A stretch of DNA of 64,000 nucleotides from an uncultured Candidatus Saccharibacteria bacterium (lineage in GTDB: Bacteria; Patescibacteriota; Minisyncoccia; Phycocordibacterales; PALSA-1337). The stretch covers positions 57,155-121,154 of the forward strand of contig CAYQFS010000002.1 in the NCBI GenBank assembly GCA_964416985.1. Direction: 5' to 3'. Positions 3,596-63,163 of the stretch are shown piece after piece. The translations under genes were made by a program, and so were the position numbers. Numbering within the stretch: position 1 is the first letter of the stretch; every line of letters starts with the position of its first letter. The notes beneath the pieces are model-generated. The model had not been told where the DNA came from. It saw nothing but the letters and a program-made list of their open reading frames with translations, and made no database searches.

Positions 3596-3686
3596 AGCCA
3601 ATCCACCAAGGGCAAACGCCGGCAAGCAATTCACATTAGCTTGTCGGCGCCTTTTATTTTGCCCATTTTCTGCTATCATACATATC

Positions 3687-4637
3687 ATGTCAAAAAAGAT
3701 ATCACTCTCTGGTATACAACCAAGCGGCAGACCTCATATAGGTAACTATTTTGGAGCAATGAAACAGTGGGTAGACTTTCAGAATGAGGGTTATGAATGC
3801 TACTACATGATTGTTGACTATCATGCTCTTAATACAATTCAAAACGGAAAAGAAATGAAGGAAAACATCTTGAATCTCATCATTGATTTGATGGCCATCG
3901 GTCTTGATCCAAAGAAGTGCATCCTTTTCAAACAGTCCGATATTTCAGCACACACTGAACTCGCTTGGATTCTTGAAACAATTACAACTATGCCATACCT
4001 TATGCGAGCACACGCTTTTAAAGATGCGGAGGCAAAGAACAAAGAGATTAGTGCAGGAAAGTTTCTATACCCACTCCTTATGGCAGCAGATATTCTTCTA
4101 TATGATGTCGACGTGGTTCCAGTAGGGCAAGATCAAAAGCAGCATGTAGAATACGCACGAGATACAGCTCAAAAATTTAATACTATTTTTGGAGAGACTT
4201 TTAAACTGCCCGAAGATTACATCATGAAGAGTGTCGCCATCGTCCCCGGAACTGACGGTCAAAAGATGTCAAAGAGTTACAATAACACCATTCCTCTTTT
4301 TGCCACCCGAGATGAAATTACAAAAGGCGTGATGAGCATTGTTACAGATTCAGGTTCAGATGTACCTACAAATGTTTACAATATCCACAGGCTTCTCAAA
4401 TCAGAGGCCGAGCTTAAACCTCTTTACGACGCAAACAAAGGAAAATACAAGGCACTCAAAGAAGCTTTGATTGAGGATCTTGAAGCATTCATTAAGCCAC
4501 TCCGTGAAAAAAGAGAGAAGCTCGCCCAGGATATTCCGGCAGTTTTGGAGGTCTTGAAGGGAGGTGCAGAGAAAGCCAAAATAAAGGCGGACAAAAAACT
4601 GGCTGAGGTGAAGAAAGTAATAGGGGTTGGCTTTTAA
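3687..4637 (+). CDS. trpS: Tryptophanyl-tRNA synthetase (class I; HIGH-like PHIGN and KMSKS motifs)
   Basis: MSKKISLSGIQPSGRPHIGNYFGA ... GQKMSKSYNN. The start is the internal Met of ORF 3492..4637. TATCAT lies 7 nt upstream of the ATG. Confidence 0.92.
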   Translation: MSKKISLSGIQPSGRPHIGNYFGAMKQWVDFQNEGYECYYMIVDYHALNTIQNGKEMKENILNLIIDLMAIGLDPKKCILFKQSDISAHTELAWILETITTMPYLMRAHAFKDAEAKNKEISAGKFLYPLLMAADILLYDVDVVPVGQDQKQHVEYARDTAQKFNTIFGETFKLPEDYIMKSVAIVPGTDGQKMSKSYNNTIPLFATRDEITKGVMSIVTDSGSDVPTNVYNIHRLLKSEAELKPLYDANKGKYKALKEALIEDLEAFIKPLREKREKLAQDIPAVLEVLKGGAEKAKIKADKKLAEVKKVIGVGF

Positions 4638-8527: not shown

Positions 8528-9022
8528 CAGAAACGAGCGGGGTTACCTCAATGGAGGTTGACTCTAATCGCTCAACAAACAAAAGCACAGACATGTACTC
8601 ATGAGCAAAAAAAGTGGAGTCCATCAAGCAGAAATCATTGAATTCGATGGCCGGTGCGGTACGGCACGCGTCACTGACCTCGATAACCGGATTGTAAAAA
8701 TCCATCGGAAATTCATGAGACATATCAGGGGTTCATGGATCTCTGACGAAGCATACCGGGGTGATACACAATTACTAATCGGCTCGAGACTTCAGATCGT
8801 TCTCATCATCGGCCACAGTGGGTGGGCGCGCGTATGGGGACTGAGTGCTGACTACCAGCCATCGGAGGCAGCAAAGCGCATAAAATCTCACTCAAATCGT
8901 GTGGCGCCATGGCACCAGACTCGGCAATCTCAATGTGTCGGAATGCGAGCCTAGGCAGAAAAATCTAATCACCAAAACCTTTTCAGGGACTGGGAGTCAC
9001 GCACTCCTGGTCCCGGTTTTTT
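8528..9022 (+). ncRNA. Candidate large structured ncRNA (about 495 nt), possibly RNase P RNA (rnpB); identity unverified
   Basis: A 580-bp interval between csaA and scpA with no convincing CDS, and local GC well above the genome background. It has its own promoter and a terminal hairpin plus U-run. Several short matches to bacterial RNase P RNA occur in the same order as in E. coli M1 RNA: TCCATCAAGCAG vs UCCAUAGGGCAG, GATGGCC, GGTGCGGTA, GGGGTTCAT, and CAGACTCGGCAATC vs CAGAACCCGGCUUAUC. The P5.1-P9 region would have to be much reduced. Confidence 0.45.
8985..9022 (+). terminator. Intrinsic terminator (GGGACTGGGAGT / ACTCCTGGTCCC stem with two G-U pairs, then a T7 run)
   Basis: The hairpin is immediately followed by GGTTTTTTT. 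It lies 40 nt upstream of the scpA promoter. Confidence 0.6.
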
Positions 9023-9060
9023 TATTACCCATTCCCTCATATTTTTGGTATACTTACCAC

Positions 9061-9825
9061 ATGTCCGCCGAGGCAGGGGTCAAAAAGCTCATCCCGAATT
9101 CTCACTTCAAAATCAAGACTGAAGTTTTTGAAGGGCCTCTCGACCTCCTCCTTACTCTCGTAGAAAAAAGAAAACTTTTTATCGGAGACATCGCACTTGC
9201 AAAGGTGACCGATGATTTTATTGAGCATATCAAAAATTTTGACAAACTTCCGATGGGGGAGTCAGCCCAATTCATCCTCGTCGCCTCGACTCTTCTTCTC
9301 ATTAAATCAAAATCACTTTTACCATCACTTACATTGACTGAAGAGGAAGAGGAGGGAATACACGATCTCGAAATTCGCCTCAAAATTTATAAAAGAATAA
9401 AGGATGCCAGTGTTCATGTAAAGGAACTTTTTGGAGATGAAATGATTTTTCTGCCAAGCCAAATGAAGCCTGTTGAGCCAGTATTTTCACCTCACGAATC
9501 AATGACACTTTTGTCCCTCGCGGAAGCTATACGAGACATTGTTAAACATCTCCCCAAAAAAGAAGCTATTCCCAAGGCGGTCATTAAAAAAGTTGTGAGT
9601 CTAGAAGAAATGATTGACAATCTTACTAAAAGGATAACTCAGGGGCTTCGTATGAGTTTCAAGGAATTTTCAAGTCAGCACAAGGCAGAGAGGGTAAATG
9701 TTATTGTGAGTTTTCTTGCCATGCTTGAACTAGTAAAGCAGGGAGTCATTCAGGCACATCAGGATGATACCTACGGAGATATACACATGGAAACACAATC
9801 AGTCGGTGTTCCAAGATATAACTAA
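9061..9825 (+). CDS. scpA: Segregation and condensation protein A (kleisin ScpA)
   Basis: EGPLDLLLTLVEKRKLFIGDIALAKVTDDF is a ScpA signature. The start is the internal Met. An extended -10 TGGTATACT lies 6 nt upstream of the ATG. Confidence 0.85.
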   Translation: MSAEAGVKKLIPNSHFKIKTEVFEGPLDLLLTLVEKRKLFIGDIALAKVTDDFIEHIKNFDKLPMGESAQFILVASTLLLIKSKSLLPSLTLTEEEEEGIHDLEIRLKIYKRIKDASVHVKELFGDEMIFLPSQMKPVEPVFSPHESMTLLSLAEAIRDIVKHLPKKEAIPKAVIKKVVSLEEMIDNLTKRITQGLRMSFKEFSSQHKAERVNVIVSFLAMLELVKQGVIQAHQDDTYGDIHMETQSVGVPRYN

Positions 9826-9868
9826 GGATTTCGTGTGATATAATTAAAAAATCACCATCCTATATCCT

Positions 9869-10447
9869 ATGGCTATTTCATTGTCCTCAAAAATCCAAGC
9901 TGTACTTTTTTACAAGGCAGAACCACTGTCGTTGAAGCGCCTTGCAAGTATTTTGAAGGTTGAAGAAAATGAAATTAAGACTGCCTTGATTGAGCTTAGA
10001 GAAGACCTAAGAGAAACTGGCCTTACACTTATTGAATGGGAAGACGAGGTGACGCTCGGGACATCAAAGGACGTTTCCGGACTCATTGAAATCCTAACAA
10101 AGGAAGAACTTACAAAGGACCTCGGAAAAGCCGGACTCGAAACGCTCTCCATCATTCTCTACCAAGGGCCTCTTACCCGGGCAGAAATTGACTATGTGAG
10201 AGGGGTCAATTCCCAGTTCATTTTGAGAAATCTTCTTGTCAGAGGTCTCATTGAAAAAGTTGAGAATCCCAAAGACCAACGAAGTTTTCTTTACAAGCCT
10301 TCACTTGAGCTCATTTCATATCTTGGAATTTCAAAAATAACAGACCTTCCAGACTATGATACTGTAAGAAAAGATATTGAATCGTTCAAATTAAACGCAC
10401 ACGATGAGTACCATGGAGCATCCCCAGAAACACAGGAAAATAGATAA
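9869..10447 (+). CDS. scpB: Segregation and condensation protein B (ScpB)
   Basis: Winged-helix repeats (IQAVLFYKAEPLSLKRLASIL ... LSIILYQGPLTRAEIDYVRGV) typical of ScpB. Gene order scpA-scpB is conserved. Confidence 0.85.
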   Translation: MAISLSSKIQAVLFYKAEPLSLKRLASILKVEENEIKTALIELREDLRETGLTLIEWEDEVTLGTSKDVSGLIEILTKEELTKDLGKAGLETLSIILYQGPLTRAEIDYVRGVNSQFILRNLLVRGLIEKVENPKDQRSFLYKPSLELISYLGISKITDLPDYDTVRKDIESFKLNAHDEYHGASPETQENR

Positions 10448-13285: not shown

Positions 13286-13303
13286 TGTTATAATTACCCT
13301 TAC

Positions 13304-14617
13304 ATGCCCAAGAACATCATTACCCGTTTTCCTCCATCACCTACAGGTTTTCTTCATGTAGGCCGCGCCCGTACGGCCCTTTTCAACTATCTTTTCACCA
13401 AGCACAACAAAGGGAAGATGGTCTTTCGAATTGAAGACACTGATAAAGAAAGATCAAAAAAAGAATATGAAGAAAATATAATTGAATGCCTTGAATGGCT
13501 TGGGATCACTTACGATTCTGGTCCATTTCGTCAATCAGAAAGAAACGAAATTTACCAAAAATACATTAAAAAAATGCTCGACAACGGCTCGGCATACATT
13601 TCAAAAGAAACTGAAGGTGATCGGTCTGAGGTGATTCGATTTAAAAATCCAAACAAAAAAATTACGTTCACTGATCTCATTCGCGGAGATGTAACAATCG
13701 ACACCACCGACCTCAAAGATTTTGTCATCGCACGAAGTATGGAAGAACCTCTCTACCATTTAACTGTTGTTGTCGATGATCATGAAATGGGAGTAACCCA
13801 TGTCATTCGTGGAGATGATGGAATTGCCAATACTCCCCGCCAGATCCTCATCCAGGAGGGAATAGGGGCGGAAAGGCCGTTATATGCCCATATACCGCTC
13901 ATTTTGGCCGCAGACCGGTCAAAGCTCTCTGGCCGTCATGGGGCTGTTTCTGTCACTGAATTTCGAGATATGGGCTACCTGCCAGAAGCCTTTGTGAACT
14001 TCCTGGCGCTCCTCGGCTGGAACCCAGGAACCGAGCAGGAAATTTTTTCAATGGATGAACTTGCAAAAATTTTCTCTCTCGAAAAGGTCCAAAAAGCTGG
14101 GGCAATATTTAATGTAGAAAAATTAAACTGGTTCAACAAACAATACCTCGAGAAGCTCGACGATGTCTCTTTTCTCAAACATGCAGAAAAATTTTGGCCA
14201 AAAGACATTTCATCTGATCAGAAAAATAAATTAATTCCTCTCATCAAGGAAAAAATCTCACACTTTGCCCAAATTCCCGAACTTTTCAAAGGTGAGCTTT
14301 CTTTTATCTACGGAGTTGCCAAATATCCAAAAGAAAAATTGATGTGGAAACAAGAGACTGATATTTCAGCAAGTAAAAATAATCTACAACTTGTTATTGA
14401 TATCATAAAAAGCATTTCAGAAGAAACATTTAATTCAGCTTATATTAGGGCACAAATCTGGCCTCTCGCCGAGAAGACTGGAAAAGGAAATGTCCTCTGG
14501 CCTATGCGTTTTGCACTCTCAGGACAGGACAAATCACCGGATCCTTTCGTCATTTCCGCACTACTTGGCAAGGAAGAAACTCTCAAACGTCTTACCTCTG
14601 CTTATGAAGCAATTTAG
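13304..14617 (+). CDS. gltX: Glutamyl-tRNA synthetase
   Basis: RFPPSPTGFLHVGRARTALFNYLF (HIGH region) and a KLSGRHG variant of KMSKS. Start is the internal Met. TATAAT lies 9 nt upstream. Confidence 0.9.
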   Translation: MPKNIITRFPPSPTGFLHVGRARTALFNYLFTKHNKGKMVFRIEDTDKERSKKEYEENIIECLEWLGITYDSGPFRQSERNEIYQKYIKKMLDNGSAYISKETEGDRSEVIRFKNPNKKITFTDLIRGDVTIDTTDLKDFVIARSMEEPLYHLTVVVDDHEMGVTHVIRGDDGIANTPRQILIQEGIGAERPLYAHIPLILAADRSKLSGRHGAVSVTEFRDMGYLPEAFVNFLALLGWNPGTEQEIFSMDELAKIFSLEKVQKAGAIFNVEKLNWFNKQYLEKLDDVSFLKHAEKFWPKDISSDQKNKLIPLIKEKISHFAQIPELFKGELSFIYGVAKYPKEKLMWKQETDISASKNNLQLVIDIIKSISEETFNSAYIRAQIWPLAEKTGKGNVLWPMRFALSGQDKSPDPFVISALLGKEETLKRLTSAYEAI

Positions 14618-18296: not shown

Positions 18297-18740
18297 TTAT
18301 GCTTTGGTAATATCGAGAGTAAACGATGCCTTCTTGTCCCCCACCTTTATGACTATCTCGTGCTTTCCAATTTCCTTTATAGGCTTTTCGAGGACAATGT
18401 GAGATTCGTCAACCTGAATTCGGGTCTGTTTTTGAATTTCAGGAATGAGCTCGGCTTTGTGAACTCCGGCAAAGAGGTGACCCTTATCATTTGCCTTTTC
18501 CTTCATAGTAATCGTTGCACCATCGAGTTCTTTAAGATTTTTCATGAGAAGCTCGTGATGGAGCTTCTTTTCCCCTTCATCCTTCAGGATCTCTAGTCCA
18601 ATGCGTTTTACGGCATCAGAAGTTGCGGCAATGGCTAGTCCCTTTGGAATAAGGAGGTTTAGAGCATATCCCTCAGCTACATCCTTTGTTTCATACTTTC
18701 TTCCAACCTTGGCTACATCTTTAAGCATTATTATTTTCAT
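18297..18740 (-). CDS. rplI: 50S ribosomal protein L9
   Basis: MKIIMLKDVAKVGRKYETKDVAEGYALNLLIPKGLA matches the L9 N-domain. Confidence 0.85.
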   Translation of the reverse strand: MKIIMLKDVAKVGRKYETKDVAEGYALNLLIPKGLAIAATSDAVKRIGLEILKDEGEKKLHHELLMKNLKELDGATITMKEKANDKGHLFAGVHKAELIPEIQKQTRIQVDESHIVLEKPIKEIGKHEIVIKVGDKKASFTLDITKA

Positions 18741-18750
18741 AGTAGGTATA

Positions 18751-20019
18751 TTACGGTTCTTTTCTCAAAATTTCAACTGCCTTATTCATTTGAGGGTCAA
18801 TTTTTGAATCGAGATCCTTTTGGGTAATTTTGACCTCAACATCCGGAACAAGTCCGTCATGGGAGAGGTTGTGGCCATTTGGGGTGAGCCATCGAGCTAT
18901 AGTGACCTTGAGAGATGTCTCGTCGGTAATCGGCACAAGCTCCTGAACAGATCCCTTTCCAAATGTCTTTGTTCCTATAAGTCGTGCCCTACCGTGTTCC
19001 TGAAGAGCTCCTGCAAAAATCTCTGAAGCCGAAGCCGATCCCCCATCAACAAGGATAATGAACTTGTAGCTATTGTTAAATATGTTGTAGCCCTTGCTTC
19101 GATAGACTTGATTTGTCTGTTTTCCTCCAAAATCCTCCGTCACCACCACATCCCCTACGGGAAGGAACCAGCTTGCCATATCCCAAGCTGCATCAAGGTA
19201 TCCTCCAGGATTTCCTCGAAGATCGATGATGAGCTTGTGTGATCCTGACTGGATAAAATCTCGGAGAGCCTGGCGGAAGAGATTTGAAGCCTGGGCAGTG
19301 AAGCTAAAGAGTCTTACCACAAAGATGCCATCTTCTCTGAGCCCAGACCCACCTGAGGCTGTTGTTGATGCACTACTATTTCCAGATTTAATTTCGGTCT
19401 GAATTGTTGGAATATCGATAACATCCCGGACAATATTTTTTTCAAGTTGCTCGCTTGTACCCTCGCGAACAAAAATAATTTTGACTGTAGTGCCCTTTGG
19501 TCCTCTAATAAGTTTTACGGCTTTATCGACAGGAAGATCGAGGGTGCTTTCTCCATTTATTTTTATAATTTTGTCGCCAGCTCTGACACCTGCTTTTTCT
19601 GCCGGACTTCCCTTGAGAGGAGAAACGACGGTCATGACACCATCCTTGAGACCAATTTCCATTCCAACTCCTTCAAAATTCCCTGCGATATCACTCTTGA
19701 AGAGCTGATTTTCTTCCGGAGGAAAGAAAACAGTGTATGGATCACCCTGTGAACCTGCAAGCCCCTTTATTGCCCCCCAAATTCTCTCCTGAGAATCGGT
19801 CGTCGTAGCTGCAACGTACTTTTGGCTCAAAACCTGCCAGACTCTCCAAAAAGGTTCAAATTGTTCATCAGTAAGATTTATTCCATTTGGAATAGTGACC
19901 TCACCGTGGGCTGTTAGCGCGCTCCGTTGTCCAAGATAATTCCCCACAAAAAACACCACGAGGATACCGATGATCCCGAGGGTTGTACGAACGAGATTTC
20001 TCTGTTGGTTTGTATTCAT
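18751..20019 (-). CDS. ctpA: Carboxy-terminal processing protease (S41 family, PDZ domain) with N-terminal TM anchor
   Basis: PDZ region, then the catalytic block IIDLRGNPGGYLDAA and downstream FAGALQEHGRARLIGTKTFGKGSVQ typical of S41 peptidases. Confidence 0.85.
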   Translation of the reverse strand: MNTNQQRNLVRTTLGIIGILVVFFVGNYLGQRSALTAHGEVTIPNGINLTDEQFEPFWRVWQVLSQKYVAATTTDSQERIWGAIKGLAGSQGDPYTVFFPPEENQLFKSDIAGNFEGVGMEIGLKDGVMTVVSPLKGSPAEKAGVRAGDKIIKINGESTLDLPVDKAVKLIRGPKGTTVKIIFVREGTSEQLEKNIVRDVIDIPTIQTEIKSGNSSASTTASGGSGLREDGIFVVRLFSFTAQASNLFRQALRDFIQSGSHKLIIDLRGNPGGYLDAAWDMASWFLPVGDVVVTEDFGGKQTNQVYRSKGYNIFNNSYKFIILVDGGSASASEIFAGALQEHGRARLIGTKTFGKGSVQELVPITDETSLKVTIARWLTPNGHNLSHDGLVPDVEVKITQKDLDSKIDPQMNKAVEILRKEP

Positions 20020-20049
20020 ATATGCGAAGTAGTAAAGGTATTATATACT

Positions 20050-21438
20050 ATGGGAATGCTTATATACAACACCCTTTCCGGCGCTAAAGAGGAATTTAAG
20101 CCTCAGAAAGAAGGTCAGGTAGGAATATACAATTGCGGGCCAACTGTCTACGATACAGTTCATATTGGAAACCTAAGAACATTTACAATGTATGACATTG
20201 TTCGAAGAGTTTTTGAATATGAGGGGTATCACGTCACCCAAGTCATGAATATTACAGATGTTGATGACAAAACAATCAAGAGAAGTCGTACTGAGAATGT
20301 TCCCCTTGAAAAGGTTACGAGAAAATACGAGGAGCTTTTTCTTTCTGATATTACCGCCCTAAATATACGGACACCTCACCGTCTTCTGCGTGCAAGCGAG
20401 TATGTGAAGGACATGATTGAGATGATTTCTAATCTTCTTGAAAAAGGGATTGCCTATCCCACAAAGGATGGTGTCTATTTTAGCATTGGAATGTTCAAGT
20501 CATACGGCGAACTTGCACACATCAAACTCGATGCTGATGTCCGAGAGAGAATTTCAAATGATGAATATGAGAAAGAAAATCCTCGCGATTTTGCTCTCTG
20601 GAAATTTTGGAATGAAGATGATGGAGAGGTCGTATGGGATGCTCCATTTGGAAAAGGCCGGCCGGGCTGGTCTATTGAATGTTCTGCAATGGCCACTCGG
20701 GCCCTCGGATCAACAATCGATATTCATACTGGTGGAATTGACCTTGTCTTTCCTCATCACACAAATGAAATTGCTCAGTCAGAGGCCGCTACTGGAGAGC
20801 ATTTTGTAAATTACTGGGTACACGGTGCCTTCATGAATGTGAATGACGACAAAATGGCAAAATCGAAAGGCAATTTCCTCAAACTCTCCGATCTCGTAGA
20901 AGCAGGTATTTCCCCTCTTGCTTTCAGATACTGGCTCCTTACCTCACACTATCGCTCTCCTGTAAACTTCACCCTTGAAGCGGTAAAAGCTGCTCAGACG
21001 GCCTTTGTGCGGCTTTTGGAGGCATTCATTGACCTTTCAAATGCTACTCCTTCTGTCCTCGACCATACCCATGATCATGGCGAACATACCGATATAAATT
21101 ATGCTGTTGAGTTTGAAAAAATAATTACCGATGACTTCAATATGCCGGAAGCCATTGCCCTCGTCTGGAAAATGATACGCGATCCGCACGAAAATCCCCA
21201 GGAGAAAATGGAAATGCTTCTTGATTTTGATGAAGTGCTTGGATTCGGTTTTTCAAAAGTTCTCGACATGACAAAAAGCCAGTCGATTCCTCCCGAAGTC
21301 ACAGCTCTTGCCGAAACTCGAGAGGAGGCGCGTTCAGCTCAGGAGTGGGACAAGGCCGATGCCCTCCGAAAAGAAATCGAGGCGAGAGGATATATCGTCA
21401 AGGATACTGATGAAGGGTTTGTGCTGAGGAAGAAGTAG
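20050..21438 (+). CDS. cysS: Cysteinyl-tRNA synthetase
   Basis: CGPTVYDTVHIGNLRTF (HIGH) and KMAKSKGN (KMSKS). Start is the internal Met. TATTAT/TATACT sits immediately upstream of the ATG. Confidence 0.9.
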   Translation: MGMLIYNTLSGAKEEFKPQKEGQVGIYNCGPTVYDTVHIGNLRTFTMYDIVRRVFEYEGYHVTQVMNITDVDDKTIKRSRTENVPLEKVTRKYEELFLSDITALNIRTPHRLLRASEYVKDMIEMISNLLEKGIAYPTKDGVYFSIGMFKSYGELAHIKLDADVRERISNDEYEKENPRDFALWKFWNEDDGEVVWDAPFGKGRPGWSIECSAMATRALGSTIDIHTGGIDLVFPHHTNEIAQSEAATGEHFVNYWVHGAFMNVNDDKMAKSKGNFLKLSDLVEAGISPLAFRYWLLTSHYRSPVNFTLEAVKAAQTAFVRLLEAFIDLSNATPSVLDHTHDHGEHTDINYAVEFEKIITDDFNMPEAIALVWKMIRDPHENPQEKMEMLLDFDEVLGFGFSKVLDMTKSQSIPPEVTALAETREEARSAQEWDKADALRKEIEARGYIVKDTDEGFVLRKK

Positions 21439-22164: not shown

Positions 22165-22210
22165 AGTTATGGGATAATTATGGCACTAATGAGAGGTTGT
22201 TGCAAAATAT

Positions 22211-22537
22211 TTGGGTATTGATAGGATTATCAGAGCACTGGAGATCTGTACTATGAAACCAACACCCGAACAACAGATACGGGCTGGTGAAGAAATAGAA
22301 CTTGTAACCGTAAGTCCTTTCAAGGATAGAGTCGAGGGACTCATTCAAAAGTTACGAGAAATGAATCTCGGAATCGGTCAATCCGTACAGTTCCTTGGCA
22401 CATCTAAAGGCGACCAACTGATAGTCTACATTCCAGCTGGTCTACAAGCTGTGCAGAGCGAGGAATTGCTTACTGCTCTCATTGCTAGTCAGTTGGAATT
22501 TCGAGAATTCATTGGAACCCAAACCCGTCGAACATAA
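22211..22537 (+). CDS. Hypothetical protein (108 aa; alternative start at 22253)
   Basis: Intact ORF inserted between livF and livG on the opposite strand. No recognisable domain. A weak hairpin terminator follows. Confidence 0.4.
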   Translation: MGIDRIIRALEICTMKPTPEQQIRAGEEIELVTVSPFKDRVEGLIQKLREMNLGIGQSVQFLGTSKGDQLIVYIPAGLQAVQSEELLTALIASQLEFREFIGTQTRRT

Positions 22538-22936: not shown

Positions 22937-23689
22937 TTACTCCCCCAAATAAGCCTCCACCACATCCTTCCTCGCAAGTACCTCCTCTGGCCTCCCTTCC
23001 GCCAAAAGCTGCCCTGCATCGAGCACATAGAGATGATCTGAGAGTTCACGAATGAGATCCATATTGTGCTCAACAAGAATGACAGCTTTGCCACTCGTCC
23101 GAAGTTCCTTTAGGACAGAAACGACGACTTTGATCATTTCAGGAAAGAGTCCGGCAAACGGCTCATCAAAAAATACAATGCCAATGTCCCCTGCTCCGCT
23201 GTGAGTCATGGCAAGAACTCGGGCAATCTCAAGAAGTTTTCTCTGACCATAGGATAGATTCTTTGCAAGCTCATTTCTCTTTTCCCAAAGACCGACTTTT
23301 TTCAAAACTTCCTCGGCTTTTTCGAGATGAAAGGCACCGTGCCGTTCAAAGAGAGATTTCCAGATGCTTCGTTCGGTGAGTACTACGAGAATATTGTCGA
23401 GAACTGGCATCTGTTCAAAGAGCTTCACATCTTGGAAGGTACGGGTCATTCCATAGAAAGGAATTTCGTGCGACCTGATTTTTGAGAGACGAGTTGAGTC
23501 AAGGACGATCATCTCGCCAGTATCGATGCTGTGAATACCAGTCAAAGTATTGATGAGGGTTGATTTGCCGGAGCCATTCGGGCCGACGATAGAAGTGATC
23601 TTCCCTGCTTCAAAAGAAATGGAAAGTTTGTTGACAGCAGTAATTCCGTCAAAGTGTTTCGAGAGGTCTTTTGTGGAGAGGAGGGGCAT
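22937..23689 (-). CDS. livG: ABC transporter ATP-binding protein, LivG-like
   Basis: Walker A GPNGSGKST and the LivG-type insertion. TGTATACT lies 6 nt upstream of the chosen ATG. Confidence 0.85.
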   Translation of the reverse strand: MPLLSTKDLSKHFDGITAVNKLSISFEAGKITSIVGPNGSGKSTLINTLTGIHSIDTGEMIVLDSTRLSKIRSHEIPFYGMTRTFQDVKLFEQMPVLDNILVVLTERSIWKSLFERHGAFHLEKAEEVLKKVGLWEKRNELAKNLSYGQRKLLEIARVLAMTHSGAGDIGIVFFDEPFAGLFPEMIKVVVSVLKELRTSGKAVILVEHNMDLIRELSDHLYVLDAGQLLAEGRPEEVLARKDVVEAYLGE

Positions 23690-23925
23690 GAGAAAAGTAT
23701 ACACTTTTTGAGTAGTGGTTGCTACTTGAGTTTTTTGGTCTCTAGGAGTAGGTGTTTGTCGGCGACGTCGGTTTCTCTTTCTTTCCCGTCCTCAGCAGTC
23801 ATTTTCAACTGTCCGATTTTTGCGGAATAAGATAAGTCTAGCGGGGTACATAGTGATGTAAAGGGCAAAAACAGCCAAAAAGCGATGAAAATTTGATTTC
23901 GTCTTTATTTCGTGGGGATAACTAT

Positions 23926-25036: not shown

Positions 25037-26155
25037 TTATTTCAATTTTATTGGTATAGCTGTCTTTCCGTCAAATGTCATGAGAATCACTTCTGCCCCG
25101 CTTCGATCTCGGTCTTCATTTAATATGATTCTCCCTGAAACCCCGTCCCGTGAATCAAATGATTGTAAAACTTTTTCTACTTCTGTTGTTCCTGCCTTCC
25201 TTAAGGCATCTGCTACCATATATACTGCATCATATGTTGTATCAGCTGAGACTCCTGGAGCTATTCCATATTCTTTTGTAAAAGAATCTACAAATTCCTG
25301 CCGTGGAGGTGCATACGTAGCGTAGATAACGTCTTTAATGTACTCAGGCGCAAGCTGCGCTGGAAGACCAAATGTTACCACATCTGTAGGAAAGAGAAGT
25401 GGGACATTGAGGCCTAATTCTCGTGATTGCTTTACAAAACGCTCAAGAGGTCCTGGTGCCATAACAAAGAAAACCGCTTCGCTTGCTTCTTTCTTCATTT
25501 TTGCAATGTGTGTTTTAAAATCAGATGTATCATAAATTACAGTGACTGTTTCAGTTGTAATAATCCCCGCCTTTTGTGCGTATTCATTGAAAGCTGCAGT
25601 AAGAGAACTTTCATAAGGCCCTATTGTACTTATACTTGCTGCCTTTTTAATCCCCTTTCTTTGAAGATCTTGAACAAGAGCTTCTACTGCTATTCCATCT
25701 GAAGGCCATGTACGTAAAAGATACTGACTTTTCTTAGTAAAACCAGGAGCTCCTGCAGCAACAGTTATGGTAATCAGTTTGTTTTGATTGATTATCGGAA
25801 TAATGGGTTCTGTTTCTGATGTCCACCCCGTCAAAAGAAAAGAAACTTTATCAAAGGAAATGAGCTTACTCACTGCTGAAACAGAACTTTTCGGCTCAGT
25901 CTTATTATCCTCAGCAACCAGTTTAAGTTGAGTTCCAAGAACACCTCCAGCGGCATTAATTTCTTTTATCGCTAGTTGTGCACCCTTAAGCTGATTTTCA
26001 CCCCACGAAGCTCCAGAACCTGTGAGAGCAAAATTTCCTCCGATTACTATTGGTTCAGAGGAAGTGAGAGTGGTAGACTTCCTTGTCACACCCCAAATGA
26101 CAATGAATGTTATAACTAACGCCACTACTCCCCATATTATTTTTTTCATATCCAT
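25037..26155 (-). CDS. ABC substrate-binding protein, LivK-family paralog 2, TM-anchored
   Basis: IVIGGNFALTGSGASWGENQLKGAQLAIKEINAAGGVLGTQLKLVAEDNK. Its architecture parallels the neighbouring SBP. Confidence 0.8.
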   Translation of the reverse strand: MDMKKIIWGVVALVITFIVIWGVTRKSTTLTSSEPIVIGGNFALTGSGASWGENQLKGAQLAIKEINAAGGVLGTQLKLVAEDNKTEPKSSVSAVSKLISFDKVSFLLTGWTSETEPIIPIINQNKLITITVAAGAPGFTKKSQYLLRTWPSDGIAVEALVQDLQRKGIKKAASISTIGPYESSLTAAFNEYAQKAGIITTETVTVIYDTSDFKTHIAKMKKEASEAVFFVMAPGPLERFVKQSRELGLNVPLLFPTDVVTFGLPAQLAPEYIKDVIYATYAPPRQEFVDSFTKEYGIAPGVSADTTYDAVYMVADALRKAGTTEVEKVLQSFDSRDGVSGRIILNEDRDRSGAEVILMTFDGKTAIPIKLK

Positions 26156-26191
26156 ATTCTACCCTTCCATCCTGAACTTGCAACCCCTCGA

Positions 26192-33628: not shown

Positions 33629-34783
33629 TTATTCATGCAGGACTCTCAAAACTTCTTCTTTTGTCGTAATCCCTCTTTCGACTTTTTCCATTCCATCCTC
33701 GTACATCGTCATCATCCCGGAAACTTTTGCATACCTGCCAATTTCCGAAAGTGAAATACGAGACATAATGTACTTTCTCATTTCCTCATCGATGACAAGA
33801 GTCTCAGCAACAACCACCCTTCCTTTGTACCCAGATTTTCCACACAATGTACAACCAATTCCCTTGCACTCCTGACACACTTTTCGAACAAGCCTCTGGG
33901 CAATAACGAGCGAGATAGTCGATGCCACAAGGTAGGGATCAACCCCCATATCAATGAGGCGTGGAATAGCCCCAAGAGCCGAATTTGTATGAAGTGTCGA
34001 AAGTAAAAGGTGACCGGTGAGAGAAATATTTGTAGCGATCTGAGCAGTTTCAGTGTCTCGTATTTCTCCGACCATGATGATGTCAGGGTCCTGCCGTACG
34101 ATGGAGCGCAGACCATTTGCAAATGTAATGCCATGACGCTCCCTAATCTGGATCTGGCGAATTCCCGATATCGCGTATTCGATCGGATCCTCTAGAGTCA
34201 CGATCGACTGCTCTTCCCTTGCAAGAAGCTTTACGAGTGTATAAAGAGACGAAGTTTTTCCTGAACCAGTAGGACCGGTAACAAGAATCATTCCCTGGTG
34301 ATAACCAAGGCTCCGGAGAATTCTTTCTTCGTCATGTTCTGAAAAGCCAAGTTTTGAAAGCGTTGGCTCGTCCCGATTTCCCACAAGAAGCCTCAGAACT
34401 GCATTTTCTCCGTAATGTGTTGGGACAATTGACACTCGAACATCACATTCACAAATCTCCTGAGAAAACCTGAACCTTCCGTCTTGTGGTACAAAATGAA
34501 CATCAGTCCGTAGCCCAGCCAGTATTTTTATTCGTGCAATGAGTTCCTCATGAACATCCATATCGAGAGTATCCATATATATGAGTACCCCATCAATCCT
34601 AAATCGAATGATCACTCCCTCTGGACTTGGATCTATGTGAATATCCGAAGCTGATCGGTGATAGCCGAACATGATGAGTGAATCAGCAAGCTCCACAATC
34701 GACTGAATATCATGAAGCATCCGCTCATTATGTATGATGTCGTATATCTTTTCTTTCATAGCTCGAGGATACCAGGTGAGCAA
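33629..34783 (-). CDS. pilB: Type IV pilus assembly ATPase, PilB/GspE family (short form lacking the N1 domain; C-terminal tetracysteine motif)
   Basis: Walker A VTGPTGSGKTSS, Asp box, Walker B DPDIIMVGEIRD, His box LSTLHTNSA, and CQECKG ... CTLCGKSG zinc motif. The last distinguishes PilB/GspE from PilT. Confidence 0.85.
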   Translation of the reverse strand: MLTWYPRAMKEKIYDIIHNERMLHDIQSIVELADSLIMFGYHRSASDIHIDPSPEGVIIRFRIDGVLIYMDTLDMDVHEELIARIKILAGLRTDVHFVPQDGRFRFSQEICECDVRVSIVPTHYGENAVLRLLVGNRDEPTLSKLGFSEHDEERILRSLGYHQGMILVTGPTGSGKTSSLYTLVKLLAREEQSIVTLEDPIEYAISGIRQIQIRERHGITFANGLRSIVRQDPDIIMVGEIRDTETAQIATNISLTGHLLLSTLHTNSALGAIPRLIDMGVDPYLVASTISLVIAQRLVRKVCQECKGIGCTLCGKSGYKGRVVVAETLVIDEEMRKYIMSRISLSEIGRYAKVSGMMTMYEDGMEKVERGITTKEEVLRVLHE

Positions 34784-39033: not shown

Positions 39034-39066
39034 GACAAACTGAGGCATCTTTGATACAATATTGAC

Positions 39067-40332
39067 ATGAAACTACCAACTGATCCGTACAAGGGAGTCC
39101 GTGATTTTTATCCCGAGGATATGGCCGTGCAAAATCATATCTTTGAGATCTGGAAAAAAATCTCTCACAAGTATGGCTACCAGGAATACAGTGCTTCAGT
39201 TCTCGAACCTGCCGATCTCTATCGAGCAAAATCAGGAGAGGAAATAATTACCAATCAAACATATACTTTTACCGATCGTGGAGACCGCGAAGTTACCCTT
39301 CGTCCTGAAATGACTCCGACAGTTGCTCGCATGGTTGCAGCCCGAAAACGCGAGCTCGGCTTCCCTCTTCGCTGGTTTTCAATCCCGAATCTTTTCCGCT
39401 ACGAACAGCCACAGCGAGGACGGCTTCGCGAACACTGGCAGCTCAATGTCGATATTTTTGGAGTTGAAAGCCTTCAAGCAGAAGTCGAAGTCATGCAAAT
39501 GGCATACGATATAATGGTGCATTTTGTACCATCACCTGCAGATTTTGAAATACGAGTGAACAATCGCAAGGTCATGAACTATGTCACAAGGGATGTTTTT
39601 GGCCTTGATGAAGACAAAGCTCACAAACTTTCAAAACTGATTGATAAAAAAAGGAAAATTCCTGGAGAGATTTTTGAAAATGGCATACGGGAAATCCTCG
39701 GAGATAAAACTCGAGAGTTCATCACCCTTCTAAACTCGGAAAATTTTGAGGCATTTACAAAAAACCTTCCTCAAACAAAAAAAGAGCATGAAGGCCTTGC
39801 CGAAATTCGTGAAGTTATCGCTTCCCTCGAAAAGCTCGGCATTACAAATGCTCGCTTCGATCAGACACTCATGCGTGGCTTTGACTATTACACCGGCATC
39901 GTCTTTGAAATCTTCGACAAAAATCCCGAGAACAAAAGGTCTGTCTTTGGTGGAGGTCGATATGATGATTTGCTTTCACTTTTTGGAGGTGACAAGGTTC
40001 CAGCAGTTGGTTTTGGAGCTGGTGATGTTGTCATTCAGGATCTCATGGAAACGTACGGAAAAAAGCTCACAAAATTCTCTTTTGCCGACATCTATATATG
40101 TGTGATGAATGAAAATTCCCTCGAGTATGCCCAGGACGTCGCTCAGGCTTTGAGGAAAAAGGGTCTTCGTATTGCAGTCGATTATTCTCTTCGCAAAGTC
40201 GGCGACCAGATCAAAAATGCAAATAAAATTCACATTCCCGAGATCATTTGCATTGGCGATGAAGAAGTGAAAACAGGCAAGCTCAAAATTAAAAATCTCG
40301 AATCAGGAGAGGAAAAACCCTACACTCTTTAG
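39067..40332 (+). CDS. hisS: Histidyl-tRNA synthetase
   Basis: Class IIa motifs (REVTLRPEMTPTVARM, FRYEQPQRGRLREHWQ, GGGRYDDL) and a C-terminal anticodon-binding domain. Confidence 0.9.
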   Translation: MKLPTDPYKGVRDFYPEDMAVQNHIFEIWKKISHKYGYQEYSASVLEPADLYRAKSGEEIITNQTYTFTDRGDREVTLRPEMTPTVARMVAARKRELGFPLRWFSIPNLFRYEQPQRGRLREHWQLNVDIFGVESLQAEVEVMQMAYDIMVHFVPSPADFEIRVNNRKVMNYVTRDVFGLDEDKAHKLSKLIDKKRKIPGEIFENGIREILGDKTREFITLLNSENFEAFTKNLPQTKKEHEGLAEIREVIASLEKLGITNARFDQTLMRGFDYYTGIVFEIFDKNPENKRSVFGGGRYDDLLSLFGGDKVPAVGFGAGDVVIQDLMETYGKKLTKFSFADIYICVMNENSLEYAQDVAQALRKKGLRIAVDYSLRKVGDQIKNANKIHIPEIICIGDEEVKTGKLKIKNLESGEEKPYTL

Positions 40333-40926: not shown

Positions 40927-41392
40927 TTATCCTTCTCTCAAATTGCCTCAATATTTTTCTCCTTTCTGCATAATCCGGCAGGATTTCTCTTACCTCGTTC
41001 CAAAAGGATGCTTTGTGATTTTTCTCTACAACATGCGCTAGCTCATGGACAACAACGTAGTCAATAATTTCAACAGGCACCATCGCAAGTCGCAAGCTCA
41101 AATTAATTTTGTTTGAATGACTGCACGATCCCCATCTCGTCTGGGCATTATTGATAGAGAGTTTTGAATAGTTCCAGCCAGTCAGCCGTGAGTAATGTTC
41201 CATTCGCTCTGTCAAAAGCTCCTTGGCTTTCTCCTTGTACCATTTTCTCATTTCATCTTTATTTTTAAATGAAATCGGATTCGGCTCACCAAGATACAAA
41301 AGTTCAGTGCCGTGAACAGTCCGACGGACTCTTCTAATTCGACGGTATCTTTTGATAATTTTGAAGCGAAAAAAACGGGGCATAAATGCCAT
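40910..41392 (-). CDS. YgjP-like zinc metalloprotease (DUF45 / M48-family zincin, HExxH)
   Basis: TRWGSCSHSNKINLSLRLAMVPVEIIDYVVVHELAHVVEKNHKASFWNEV matches DUF45 hallmarks. Confidence 0.7.
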   Translation of the reverse strand: MAFMPRFFRFKIIKRYRRIRRVRRTVHGTELLYLGEPNPISFKNKDEMRKWYKEKAKELLTERMEHYSRLTGWNYSKLSINNAQTRWGSCSHSNKINLSLRLAMVPVEIIDYVVVHELAHVVEKNHKASFWNEVREILPDYAERRKILRQFERRIIRTAK

Positions 41393-41393
41393 T

Positions 41394-42707
41394 CTACAGG
41401 AATACTAAGTTGCGATCAAAATCATCTGCGTCAGTTCCTTTAACATCTCTCTTCAGAGCTTTGTGAGTAGAAGCAAGGTGAACCACTTTTTTCCCAAACT
41501 TATGTTCGAGCGCATCTATCTGCCTATGAATTGACTCAAACTTTCCCGCCTTTATACTTCCACCAAAAAGATCTGATTGAGCGGCAGAACTTGGCACAAG
41601 CTCAGAAAGGGTCACTCCTGCTGTGCGATACTTTACCCCCTTTCTATGCACGTCTTTGAAATGATCAAGAATAAGGGAGATGAGCATTTCGGGAGCATTT
41701 GTGGGAGATTGAAGAGAGAGTGAAAGAGAATGGTAGCCAAATTCCCTCGTCTTTAGAAAAAATGAAATCCGCCTCGGAACAAGATGGTAGTGCCGAGCTT
41801 TTGCACACACATCCTCGATATGTTTTGAGAGTTGAGAAATGAGAAAGTCGGGGTCGTTAGTGAAAGGATGAAATGTCCTCGTTCTCTGCATTGACGAATA
41901 CTCAGTCTTTGCTCGTGGATCAACTTCCATGACGGAAGTACCATTGAGCTCCTGCCACAGAATTTCGTATGGTTTTGAAAGATTTTCCTGTATCCACCAA
42001 GCTGGCTTCTGTGCAAACTCAAGAGCTGTTCTTATTCCCTTTTTATTCAAATATTCAGATGTTTTCCTCCCAATTCCCCAGACATCATGCACTGAGACGG
42101 TCTTTAGAAATTCGGGTGCAGTCTCTGCAGTTATAATAGTAAATCCATTTGGCTTTTTCCACTTTGATGCTACCTTCGCCAGTACCTTTGTGGGAGCAAG
42201 CCCAAGAGACACCGACAACCCCATTTCCTCATTTATTTCTTTTTTAATTTTTCTCCCAATTTCTTCGTACGTCATCTTGAGCGGACGATCAAGTCCTGTG
42301 AGCTCAGCAAAACATTCATCGATACTATACTCCTCAACTTCATCTGCATACCTTCTCACAATATCAAACATCATTCCTGAATATTTTACATACGAAGCAT
42401 AATCTCCCGGAAGGATAATGACCTGCGGAAATTGTTTCTTTAATTTAAAAATGGGCAACCCACGAGTGACTCCCAAGGCTTTGGCTTCATATGAGAGTGC
42501 AGAGACAATTCCCCTTTCCTCGCCAGTCACGACAGGTAGGCCCTTCAATTTGGGGTTCTTGGCAATCTCGACACCCACAAAGAAAGCGTCACCGTCGATG
42601 TGGAGGGTGCATTTACTAGACGATGGGGTTGTGGGGGAAAAGGTTGATGGAGCGGTAAGAGAGATTAATGAGTCTACTTTATTGTGATATAATTGTACCA
42701 TAATCAT
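41394..42707 (-). CDS. dinB: Y-family translesion DNA polymerase (DinB / Pol IV-like)
   Basis: LHIDGDAFFVGVEIAKNPKLKGLPVVT ... YSIDECFAELTG are Y-family catalytic motifs. The little-finger region is present. Confidence 0.85.
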   Translation of the reverse strand: MIMVQLYHNKVDSLISLTAPSTFSPTTPSSSKCTLHIDGDAFFVGVEIAKNPKLKGLPVVTGEERGIVSALSYEAKALGVTRGLPIFKLKKQFPQVIILPGDYASYVKYSGMMFDIVRRYADEVEEYSIDECFAELTGLDRPLKMTYEEIGRKIKKEINEEMGLSVSLGLAPTKVLAKVASKWKKPNGFTIITAETAPEFLKTVSVHDVWGIGRKTSEYLNKKGIRTALEFAQKPAWWIQENLSKPYEILWQELNGTSVMEVDPRAKTEYSSMQRTRTFHPFTNDPDFLISQLSKHIEDVCAKARHYHLVPRRISFFLKTREFGYHSLSLSLQSPTNAPEMLISLILDHFKDVHRKGVKYRTAGVTLSELVPSSAAQSDLFGGSIKAGKFESIHRQIDALEHKFGKKVVHLASTHKALKRDVKGTDADDFDRNLVFL

Positions 42708-47687: not shown

Positions 47688-47711
47688 GCCTGAATTATAC
47701 CTTTTTTGCAT

Positions 47712-47773: not shown

Positions 47774-48865
47774 TTAAGCAACTATCTGCCAATCCATTTT
47801 TTCTCCCGCAAAAAACGGGATGATGCTGTCATTGAGTGCAGGTACGGGAACTTCGGTAGGAACGATCCATTCTGAACGGCGGAGGACCAGTTCTCCCTCG
47901 TTCAATTCATACCCATAAAAACGGGCACCAAATTCCGAAAGGAACGGTTCAGCCTTTTCAAGCTTGCCACGACTCTCAAAGAAGGAGAGTACGAGCGACA
48001 ACGCAGGAATGGTAACCCACACACCGCACGGACAATCGTTCGGCGCCTGTTTTGCACTTAAGAGATGTGCTGCGTCATCTCCGGCATACCAGAAGCGAGG
48101 ATGACCAGAAAGAATCACCTCTTGAATGGCTGCGCGATCTTCCGGATCCTTGGCTCCAGGTTTGAAGGCACCAGTGTGAACACAGATCTTGCCTTTACTC
48201 CGTCTGCTGTAACCAGAGAGATCATCTGACGTGAGATAAATGTGCTGAACAGTAACCCCTGCTCCAACATTCTCTCCCTGATCCTTGACCCATTCAACCA
48301 TGTCCCGCGAAGAAACATGTTCGACACTGATTTTCAAACTTGGAATCGCAGCAGTGATGAGCGAGAGAATTGCTCTGAAAGCAGACTCCTTGAGACGACC
48401 AATAACATCATAAGAGGGATGCTCGGAATGAAACTGAGCAACCATACCTAGCTCTGCAACAACGTGCAGTGCTGGATAGATCTTGAGGTAATCGAGAACT
48501 CCATTTTCTGAATGAGTCGTGACGTACCGCGGATAGATCTTTACGATCCTGACACCACAAGCAAATGCCTCACGCACCATTTTTGGAGTAGTCGACTCCG
48601 TAATCTGAATCGTCATCACAAGCTCGAAATACTGCCCTTGTGTAAAGGTCTTTGCAATCGCTTCGATGCTGTCCTTATAGGCGACCGCCTGTGGACCTGT
48701 CAGGATAGCGGGGAGAGTATTCGGCTCCCCCACCACCCTTCGGCGCCAGCCGTGATTGACGAAGTATGGCACAAGAAATTCGAGTAACTTTTCTTGCCTG
48801 AAATGCGCATGCCAGTTGTCTGGTAAGCGCAGAATAACTGTATTTATGTCTTCACTTATGTTCAT
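47774..48865 (-). CDS. pyrC: Dihydroorotase, class II (E. coli PyrC type); GC-elevated, SD-bearing gene
   Basis: LPDNWHAHFRQEKLLEFLVPYF vs E. coli [27 protein letters not shown] vs CGCAGC. C-terminal PFFAGEKMDWQIVA vs PFLAGETVRWSVKQ. GGAAGG lies 8 nt upstream of the ATG, a Shine-Dalgarno that native neighbours lack. Confidence 0.8.
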   Translation of the reverse strand: MNISEDINTVILRLPDNWHAHFRQEKLLEFLVPYFVNHGWRRRVVGEPNTLPAILTGPQAVAYKDSIEAIAKTFTQGQYFELVMTIQITESTTPKMVREAFACGVRIVKIYPRYVTTHSENGVLDYLKIYPALHVVAELGMVAQFHSEHPSYDVIGRLKESAFRAILSLITAAIPSLKISVEHVSSRDMVEWVKDQGENVGAGVTVQHIYLTSDDLSGYSRRSKGKICVHTGAFKPGAKDPEDRAAIQEVILSGHPRFWYAGDDAAHLLSAKQAPNDCPCGVWVTIPALSLVLSFFESRGKLEKAEPFLSEFGARFYGYELNEGELVLRRSEWIVPTEVPVPALNDSIIPFFAGEKMDWQIVA

Positions 48866-48962
48866 TTTTTACCTTCCATTTCCTTTTAACAATTGTTGTC
48901 GGTTTCTTATCTGAAGAAACATTATCTTAAAGCCTTAATAAAATCAACTTAATTTTTAACAT

Positions 48963-49811: not shown

Positions 49812-49957
49812 AACTAATTGTATCCGTAACTGTAGTTTGGTTTATGTTTTAGAAAATGGACTCCCAGCACAAATTTGCTGCGATTTTCCCGTATAAATAA
49901 CAACTTCAAGGTGCTGAAAGTCCAGGGAGAAATATAGCACAAGGAATGATTTTTGGC

Positions 49958-53012: not shown

Positions 53013-53149
53013 GGTTCATATAGTATATCAAAAATGAAGGGAGAATATTCTTGACTTTATCTATTTTGGTTTGGTAGTATATTAGAGTAAGTTTTTTACT
53101 TACACCGGATTTTGATCAAGGCCTCTTCTTTGTGAAGGGGCCTTTGAAT

Positions 53150-53767: not shown

Positions 53768-53812
53768 AGCCTAGCAAACCGAGATGAAGAAAAAATAAAG
53801 TTTTTGAAACCA

Positions 53813-63054: not shown

Positions 63055-63163
63055 AATTGTGATAATAACATAAATTTAATAATATGTAAATATAAGGGTT
63101 CAGAAACTTTCACTAATTGACATTAGCTATGATATATGATACTATACGTTTATTAGTGATTCT

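Follow-up and report, generated by a model that had tools for sequence, protein, structure and literature searches.

The DNA analysed here is a stretch of 64,000 nucleotides (nt), hereafter the window, in which the gene for segregation and condensation protein A, scpA, starts six bases downstream of a sequence resembling an extended -10 promoter box. An earlier note on this DNA had read that arrangement, together with similar boxes in front of several other genes, as a genome-wide signature of leaderless mRNAs in an organism that hardly uses Shine–Dalgarno (SD) ribosome-binding sites, and the present analysis follows up this proposal. The gene names used below were confirmed with Pfam and NCBIfam. 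The guanine plus cytosine (GC) content of the window is 38–48% in 2-kb bins, and no rRNA or tRNA genes lie within its 64 kb. The identical HisS protein is encoded on two short contigs of 3–4 kb, both multi-gene DNA rather than transcripts. The best relatives of its HisS protein, with up to 84% identity, are found in metagenome-assembled genomes (MAGs) labelled Candidatus Taylorbacteria, Paceibacteria, Parcubacteria or Patescibacteria. By its sequence, the window is assigned to the Parcubacteria group of the Candidate Phyla Radiation (CPR, Patescibacteria), closest to Candidatus Taylorbacteria.

The open reading frame (ORF) that begins at ATG 9061 encodes a ScpA protein of 254 amino acids (aa; Pfam PF02616; NCBIfam segregation/condensation protein A), and the letters in front of it, TGgTATACT-taccac-ATG, are identical to those quoted earlier (the coordinates of this and other features are collected in Table 1). 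An intrinsic terminator with a free energy of -22 kcal/mol (z = -3.7) ends the upstream transcription unit, and its last base is separated by 22 nt from the promoter box and by 36 nt from the ATG. Between terminator and start codon, the TATACT hexamer with its TG is the sole plausibly placed -10-like element. With so strong a terminator at this distance, scpA needs a promoter exactly at the box, and the short interval between terminator and ATG leaves no room for a leader. The longest possible ORF opens with GTG 8899; the resulting extension would overlap the upstream gene (8601–8954) and cross the terminator. In the -35 region, three of six positions match TTGACA, and the promoter was not reported by a two-hexamer promoter scan, as is expected of an extended -10 promoter. 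The predicted transcription start is A9061, with a C at position -1. Counted from the proposed ATG, the Pfam domain of ScpA begins at residue 33. Among the orthologues, most of the closest relatives retain TGnTA(t/c)AAT-N6/7-ATG, and a single in-frame ATG upstream of the conserved part tracks the box; the N-terminal extensions range from 2 to 23 residues.

For the statistical analysis, the spacer was defined as the number of nucleotides between the last T of the hexamer and the start codon. The window was considered over its full length, with 61 genes under a naive gene rule, and was complemented with two sets of related loci, i.e. 80 loci from a HisS search and 52 loci from a metagenome scan with ScpA, together comprising about 1.9 Mb and representing roughly 130 genomes. 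Every statistic was also computed, as a control, for 50 kb of Escherichia coli K-12. In the shuffle control, each gene's own 30-nt upstream region was permuted, which corrects for local AT-richness; off-position spacers or offsets and site counts that do not depend on a gene caller provided further controls.

A TANNNT hexamer at spacer 6–7 precedes 12 of the 61 window genes, compared to 4.5 ± 1.9 after shuffling, and a count of 12 was reached in one of 2000 shuffles. When the upstream TG was included (TGnTANNNT), 5 genes were found against 0.2 expected (0/2000 shuffles). The same pattern is far stronger in the related loci, where 444 genes carry TANNNT at this spacing (135 ± 10.5 shuffled, 0/300 shuffles) and 239 carry TGnTANNNT (6.4 expected). 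Over the wider range of spacers 5–7, the hexamer was found in 16/61 window genes (26%) and at 8% of control offsets (p = 3e-5), as well as in 28% and 30% of the genes in the two related sets with 10% at control offsets. The E. coli stretch showed no enrichment, neither for spacers 5–7 (5% vs. 5%) nor against shuffles. A distance distribution of the kind that the earlier note had asked for was sharply peaked in the related loci, with its maximum at spacer 6, a shoulder at 7 and few genes beyond, up to spacer 10. In the two sets, 211 and 93 genes, respectively, have spacer 6, compared to 32–79 and 14–34 at other spacers between 3 and 12, spacer 7 apart; in the first set, the remaining in-frame spacers reach 42 (spacer 3), 74 (spacer 9) and 50 (spacer 12) genes. 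Spacer 5, tried as a member of the class, was rejected because its 37 and 16 genes equal the neighbouring background. Thus, the spacing of 5–7 nt proposed earlier is narrowed to 6–7, with a tail to 8–10.

A count made independently of any gene caller provided a similar result. In the related DNA, TGnTAnnnT-N6-ATG occurs at 272 sites, 201 of which (74%) begin an ORF of 100 aa or longer, whereas 38–101 sites with 3–12 long ORFs were found at spacers 3, 5, 11 and 12. The signal is shared by GTG (23 long ORFs at 47 sites) and is virtually lost for TTG (3 at 76), as expected if the first transcribed base must be a purine. Of the loci with 10 genes or more, nearly all show it, at GC contents from 0.30 to 0.58. 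When any ATG or GTG within the first 40 codons was allowed as start, the excess amounted to about 20% of genes (34% vs. 13% at control spacers). The expression "genome-wide signature" is fair as wording, albeit not in the sense of most genes, as only about 20–30% show the signal.

The anatomy of the element was derived from 456 aligned sites that had been chosen solely by T-12, A-11 and T-7. At positions that were not selected, T-15 was found in 70%, G-14 in 67%, A-9 in 63%, A-8 in 61% and T-17 in 58% of the sites, which defines the extended -10 consensus TGnTAnAAT. A strong -35 element was ruled out; merely a weak TT is left, with T at -35/-34 in 46–53% of the sites, and 27% of them agree with TTGACA at four or more of its six positions, compared to 12–19% at control offsets. 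A pyrimidine at -1 is seen at 75% of 311 spacer-6 sites, but was discarded as discriminating evidence since box-less genes show about 67% too. The housekeeping sigma-70 factor RpoD is encoded in the window itself. It carries YATWWIRQAITR in region 2.3/2.4, which recognizes the -10 hexamer, and VPVHMVE in region 3.0, which recognizes the TG of extended -10 promoters. In E. coli sigma-70, contacts with the hexamer and with the upstream TG are made by residues within the counterpart motifs, and by analogy we take the H and E of VPVHMVE to make the TG contact. Six bases between hexamer and +1 are the canonical geometry of such promoters, and with a peak at spacer 6 the predicted +1 thus coincides with the first base of the start codon.

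For individual genes, the position of the box is conserved among the related genomes. In most of about 75 related genomes, hisS is preceded by TG-n-TA(c/g)AAT, six bases and ATG, and the spacing from box to ATG is kept while the first residues of the protein vary in number and identity. A spacer of 6–7 was also found in orthologues of the helicase-nuclease gene (27/46), trpS (10/14), the gene for the PilB-like ATPase (9/11) and dnaG (12/23), and gltX orthologues show spacers of 6–10 in 13/16 cases. Conversely, a box at spacer 6–7 is rare upstream of the operon-internal ftsW (1/27) and of scpB (8/46). This conservation in some genes and not in others identifies the signature as gene-specific and inherited rather than compositional.

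SD motifs are scarce. The 4-mers GGAG, GAGG and AGGA at -18 to -4 were found in 4/61 window genes (7%) and in 8% of the relatives' genes, compared to 9–16% in control regions, whereas the same measure gave 58% in E. coli with 7% in control regions. In box-less genes, G drops to 0.14–0.15 and A rises to 0.39–0.40 between -12 and -1, while G rises to 0.33 in E. coli, and the most enriched upstream 4-mers are A-rich (AACA, ATAA, AATA, AAAA). Stop–start overlaps of the ATGA type are present without being dominant (37/1008 same-strand pairs). The earlier statement that almost no native gene has a GGAGG-like site holds, qualified by a small 5-mer peak (see below). No 16S rRNA was found in the window and no 16S motif in the about 130 related loci; when viral contigs were scanned for a universal 16S motif, the two matches were high-GC sequences unrelated to the window. 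The anti-SD motif CCTCCT has been detected in 48% of Parcubacteria 16S genes, and absence of uL1 has been reported to overlap with anti-SD loss (PMC9297842). The near-nil SD use of the lineage fits this distribution.

In summary, the tests of enrichment, anatomy, start codons, orthologues, sigma factor and SD absence agree with the proposal of -10 boxes placed such that the mRNA begins with the start codon, in a lineage with hardly any use of SD sites. From these data, we infer both the position of the transcription start and the mode of translation initiation. We assign a probability of roughly 0.85 to the reading that extended -10 promoters yield leaderless mRNAs for a substantial minority of genes in this almost SD-free lineage. 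Accepting this reading, a substantial minority of transcription units would be driven by extended -10 promoters (consensus T-G-n-T-A-n-A-A-T) in which the -35 element is weak or missing and the hexamer ends 6 nt, or less commonly 7 nt, ahead of the start codon. Starting about 7 nt past the hexamer, a canonical sigma-70 holoenzyme would use the A of the ATG as +1. The mRNA would begin with 5'-AUG and have neither leader nor ribosome-binding site, and the ribosome with initiator tRNA would bind the 5'-terminal AUG directly, a mode of binding that is established for leaderless mRNAs of other bacteria. For scpA, the proposed module would comprise the terminator at 8986–9024, TGgTATACT at 9046–9054, and A9061 as the start of both transcription and translation. 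Genes at spacers 8–10 would have leaders of 1–4 nt, and the remaining genes would be operon-internal or leadered without SD, relying on A-rich, G-poor upstream regions.

A -10 signature of leaderless genes is textbook for Actinobacteria and Deinococcus. In silico, bacterial leaderless genes are recognized by a TANNNT about 12 nt in front of their starts (PMC3160421), a feature that also defines "group C" of GeneMarkS-2 (PMC6028130), and in Actinobacteria and Deinococcus-Thermus the leaderless share is given as roughly 20–40% of genes or operons (PMC3160421, PMC6028130). The boxes described here resemble group C in the position of the first T of TANNNT (about 12 nt before the start, i.e. a gap of 6–8 nt) and in the share of genes (PMC3160421, PMC6028130), as well as in the predicted transcription start on the start codon and the value for start-codon calling. 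Unlike in group C, whose other genes are described to have SD-type ribosome-binding sites, SD 4-mers are found here at 7–8%, below their controls. High-GC group C genomes show a bare TAnnnT, whereas the present boxes are mostly of the extended -10 type, with TG in about two-thirds and an A/T-rich middle, and the host, unlike those of group C, is a mid-to-low-GC, ultra-small CPR bacterium of the groundwater type. The promoter itself is usual: as in sigma-70 extended -10 (TGn) systems, TG at -15/-14 stands one base before TAnAAT, the -35 element is weak or absent, and the housekeeping sigma factor has the corresponding motifs in regions 3.0 and 2.3/2.4. It differs from ordinary extended -10 promoters in standing at a fixed distance from the start codon. 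The lack of SD enrichment and the depletion of G with enrichment of A before starts are shared with the SD-poor "group B" (Bacteroidota/Cyanobacteria), for which one non-SD motif on all genes and negligible leaderless transcription have been described; here, by contrast, a strong putative leaderless class stands beside an A-rich one. The lack of SD motifs in its genes and the assignment of the window to Parcubacteria also fit a comparison with those members of the group in which the anti-SD is missing (PMC9297842). Full-text searches found no leaderless mRNAs linked to CPR/Patescibacteria genes, co-occurring mentions of "leaderless" in the hits examined concerning YchF or reference lists, and no pairing of "leaderless" with "Parcubacteria". 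Accordingly, no description of leaderless architecture for the Parcubacteria/Taylorbacteria lineage was found in the searched literature. We therefore report a known signature in a new lineage and not a new mechanism.

Several observations weigh against this interpretation. The spacer distribution of the window on its own is blurred (7 genes at spacer 6, 7 at spacer 9 and 5 at spacer 7), so that several of its genes would have leaders of 1–4 nt. By crude operon calls, a spacer-6 box precedes 13% of same-strand genes with a neighbour no more than 20 nt upstream, compared to 23% of divergent genes, and internal promoters or gene-calling errors are needed to accommodate these 13%. The SD 5-mers AAGGA, AGGAG and GGAGG show a peak at spacer 5–7 in 3.5–4.5% of the relatives' genes (1.7–2.6% at control positions; 20% in E. 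coli); SD use in the clade is thus close to nil, yet probably not wholly extinct. It should also be noted that the naive caller (ORFs of at least 80–100 aa, starting at the first ATG) renders all fractions rough, that the related loci have orthologous genes in common so that their counts are not independent events, and that the term leaderless is here deduced from promoter geometry.

One alternative places the TAnAAT-like element within the 5' untranslated region (UTR), as an A/U-rich non-SD translation signal, e.g. one that is S1-binding or unstructured, similar to group B, with transcripts starting further upstream. The lack of SD use, the A-rich and G-poor regions in front of all genes and the spacer-6 motif at 13% of closely spaced same-strand genes are compatible with such a signal. 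Still, a translation signal would not be expected to reproduce the exact extended -10 anatomy (T-15/G-14, the invariant-type T-12/A-11/T-7, and A-9/-8), to peak at 6 nt, precisely the canonical distance from hexamer to +1, or to avoid TTG starts. It would be required at operon-internal ftsW, where the motif is nearly missing (1/27), and the terminator 22 nt upstream of scpA calls for a promoter at that very place. We consider a UTR signal very unlikely.

The boxes could likewise be real promoters in front of wrongly proposed ATGs, translation starting from a downstream codon of ordinary leadered transcripts with an in-frame open leader. Start codons were indeed called by rule, and closely paired ATGs occur in several genes (cysS 20050/20056, livK paralogue 2 26155/26149). 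However, homology begins at or near the proposed ATG: hisS aligns from residue 1–2 in most of the 80 loci, Pfam domains start at residues 3–17 in murG, trpS, cysS, pilB and helicase and at residue 33 in ScpA, and the single upstream in-frame ATG of the scpA orthologues tracks the box. Together with the 74% of N6 sites that open long ORFs, compared to roughly 5–25% at non-enriched spacers, this makes misplaced starts highly improbable. Also very unlikely in our estimate, albeit less directly contradicted than the other alternatives, is a mixed architecture in which the box does give a leaderless transcript, but read-through or upstream promoters dominate and the leaderless form is a minor or conditional isoform. 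Overlapping transcription units are frequent in compact genomes, additional -10-like boxes are found further upstream of several window genes, and the motif also precedes some operon-internal genes; against this, a strong terminator separates scpA from its upstream gene, the exact spacing is conserved across genomes in a manner suggestive of selection on the leaderless start, and a leadered isoform without SD would have no obvious advantage. Chance or composition, i.e. AT-rich intergenic DNA or ORF-delimiting TAA/TAG stops that create TANNNT near the first ATG, may draw on the small window numbers (12 genes at spacer 6–7) and the somewhat raised in-frame spacers 9 and 12, yet is extremely improbable in view of the shuffles (1/2000 for the window, 0/300 for the loci, and 0/2000 with TG), the 211 genes at spacer 6 against 42, 74 and 50 at other in-frame spacers, the null result of the same pipeline in E. 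coli, and the conservation in orthologues.

Returning to extended -10 promoters and leaderless mRNAs, a broader proposal is put forward tentatively, with odds somewhat short of even: the clade may effectively have given up SD/anti-SD pairing and use two SD-independent modes of initiation, namely leaderless mRNAs (roughly a quarter of genes, conserved gene by gene, at GC contents of 30 to 58%) and A-rich, G-poor upstream regions. If this is true and the 16S rRNA lacks the anti-SD, initiation in this bacterial lineage would resemble that of many archaea or organelles, and abandonment of the SD might connect with the reduced CPR ribosome. The arrangement would represent a functional counterpart to the anti-SD loss reported in about half of Parcubacteria, as the means that these organisms seem to use in its place. 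It can be tested in the first transcriptomes obtained from such uncultured bacteria, which are predicted to show primary 5' ends at the A of those ATGs that follow leaderless-type boxes in Table 1. Moreover, rules based on the longest ORF or on SD sites easily misplace gene starts in CPR/Parcubacteria MAGs. A -10 rule shifts the start by 54 codons in scpA, 65 in trpS, 41–43 in cysS and 35 in the helicase gene, and each shifted start fits domain boundaries or the terminator. The suggested use for start-codon calling is borne out by these four genes as well as by livK paralogue 2.

Table 1 Promoter boxes and other features of the window. The spacer is given in nt; for the minus strand, coordinates are listed in ascending order unless a motif is read in its own direction
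Feature	Coordinates	Strand	Sequence element	Spacer	Start codon	Remark
Intrinsic terminator	8986..9024	+	12-bp stem (8986-9014), 7 G-C pairs, T7 tail ending 9024			
scpA promoter-start	9046..9063	+	TG 9046-9047, g 9048, TATACT 9049-9054, taccac 9055-9060	6	ATG 9061-9063	
trpS/tyrS-type tRNA synthetase	3671..3689	+	TGcTATCAT	7	ATG 3687	
gltX	13286..13306	+	TGtTATAAT	9	ATG 13304	predicted leader ~2-3 nt (near-leaderless)
rplI (bL9)	18738..18753	-	TAATAT	7	ATG 18740	weaker box, without TG
cysS	20039..20058	+	TATACT or TATTAT	6 or 5	ATG 20056 or ATG 20050	
livG (ABC ATPase)	23687..23703	-	TG abutting TATACT	6	ATG 23689	
livK paralogue 2	26147..26161	-	TAGAAT	6	ATG 26149	
Type II/IV secretion ATPase (PilB-like)	34757..34774	-	TGgTATCCT	6	ATG 34759	
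hisS	39052..39069	+	TGaTACAAT, attgac	6	ATG 39067	
YgjP-like metallopeptidase	41381..41398	-	TG abutting TAGAAT	7	ATG 41383	
UvrD/PD-(D/E)XK helicase-nuclease	47685..47699	-	TATAAT, tcaggc	6	ATG 47687	
VPDSG-CTERM protein gene	49809..49822	-	TACAAT	5	ATG 49811	doubtful
dnaG	53010..53030	-	TGaTATACT	9	ATG 53012	alternative TACTAT, spacer 7
NYN-domain gene	53759..53776	-	TGcTAGGCT	6	ATG 53761	weak hexamer, 3/6 to TATAAT
trmD	63052..63070	-	TGtTATTAT	7	ATG 63054	
scpB (contrast)	9836..9871	+	perfect TGaTATAAT		ATG 9869	box 24 nt before ATG; predicted ~17-nt leader, no SD
pyrC SD-like site (contrast)	48863..48877	-	GGAAGG 48877-48872	6	ATG 48865	
rpoD, housekeeping sigma-70	49991..51217	-	motifs YATWWIRQAITR and VPVHMVE			regions 1.1-4

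Further window genes show a box near their ATG (Table 1). For hisS, the helicase-nuclease gene and cysS, the boxes named in the earlier note are present as described, cysS offering two combinations of hexamer and start. The livG box has the expected hexamer and spacer, but "TGtTATACT" should read gTGTATACT, with the TG directly against the hexamer. What had been called a PEP-CTERM gene encodes a VPDSG-CTERM protein; its TACAAT is in place, and the site is doubtful because spacer 5 shows no enrichment in the lineage. The gltX gene, also listed among those with 5–7 nt, lies outside this range. It belongs to a group at spacers 8–9 that further comprises dnaG, the gene for an alpha/beta hydrolase, livM, livK3 and orf 15942. 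Candidates beyond the earlier list are trpS, the gene for the PilB-like ATPase, livK paralogue 2, trmD, the YgjP-like gene, rplI and the NYN-domain gene. The longest ORF of trpS begins at 3492, and its Pfam domain starts at residue 72 of this long ORF. From ATG 26149, the N-terminus of livK paralogue 2 reads MKKIIW, matching MNKKIIW of its paralogue.

The four tRNA synthetase genes of the window, with starts at trpS 3687, gltX 13304, cysS 20050/20056 and hisS 39067, have promoter boxes at spacers 6–9. No T-box or other Rfam leader was found at any of the four, and leader-based regulation of these genes seems to be absent; a leaderless architecture would predict tRNA synthetase genes without leader-based regulation such as T-boxes. 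The liv cluster (21439–29926 on the minus strand, plus 22583–22912 on the minus and 28286–29059 on the plus strand) encodes livF, livG, livM and livH, three LivK-type binding-protein paralogues, and two TrmB-like helix-turn-helix regulators. Since individual -10 boxes at spacers 6–9 precede several of the genes, the cluster does not resemble one long operon. On the minus strand at 31258–34783, a type IV pilus or type II secretion-like set is found, comprising the PilB-like ATPase, a PilC/T2SSF-like protein and a large LVIVD-repeat protein.

Leadered genes without SD are exemplified by scpB (Table 1) and dsbA (42685–42719, plus strand), the latter likewise having a perfect TGaTATAAT 23–24 nt before the ATG and a predicted leader of about 17 nt. 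A different leadered architecture is conserved at typA/bipA (window 35965–36067, ATG 36065, plus strand) in about 25 related genomes, e.g. in the loci L003, L012, L014, L036, L039, L040, L043, L046, L047, L052, L053, L056 and L076. Its promoter consists of a -35 element TTGAC(T/A), about 18 nt, and the extended -10-like TGCTTTA(A/C)T, in which T replaces the invariant A-11. The leader contains a GC-rich hairpin of variable sequence in which pairing is kept (AAAGGCC-TCC-GGCTTT at 36036–36052 of the window), followed by TTTTAAT and, 5–25 nt further on, the ATG. No Rfam family matches the leader in the window; the element looks like a leader attenuator or a terminator-like regulatory element.

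The residual SD 5-mers are concentrated in few genomes, e.g. in loci L043 and L106, where a positioned 5-mer was found in 6/20 and 6/24 genes, respectively. In these loci, as well as in L023 and L076, an SD 4-mer occurs in 25–35% of genes while the leaderless signal is retained, and the use of SD sites may vary within the clade.

In the window itself, pyrC (47774–48960, minus strand) stands out. It encodes a dihydroorotase of the homodimeric type (TIGR00856, E = 2.5e-64, below the family cut-off; no Pfam match), and a lone pyrimidine-synthesis gene is odd in a CPR genome. GGAAGG is present upstream of its ATG, as the earlier note had pointed out, and ends 6 nt before it; a GATAAT box and a 7-bp inverted repeat, GTTTCTT-cagat-AAGAAAC, are also found in the upstream region. 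The gene has a GC content of 0.49 compared to 0.43 in the adjoining helicase-nuclease gene and is absent from all related loci, in which the flanks are conserved (helicase in 53 loci, rpoD in 39). An acquired accessory gene that kept an SD-like site is a plausible explanation. The wider claim that SD sites flag foreign genes fits pyrC and therefore rests on one case: an SD is missing from the ORF at 43756–44670 (GC 0.52), and a leaderless-type box precedes the VPDSG-CTERM gene (GC 0.52), so that the SD is not supported as a reliable flag. The former ORF has no relative in any of the related loci, its neighbours dsbA and helicase being conserved. Both it and the ORF at 8601–8954, which lie on the plus strand, show raised GC (0.52 and 0.51) and match no Pfam family.

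At 53897–63054 on the minus strand, rpoB and rpoC lack the rplKAJL ribosomal protein cluster that usually stands in front of them. The genes found upstream are a small coiled-coil ORF, a homologue of PGA_cap (capsule synthesis), and trmD. The ribosomal protein bL9 is encoded in the window at 18297–18740.

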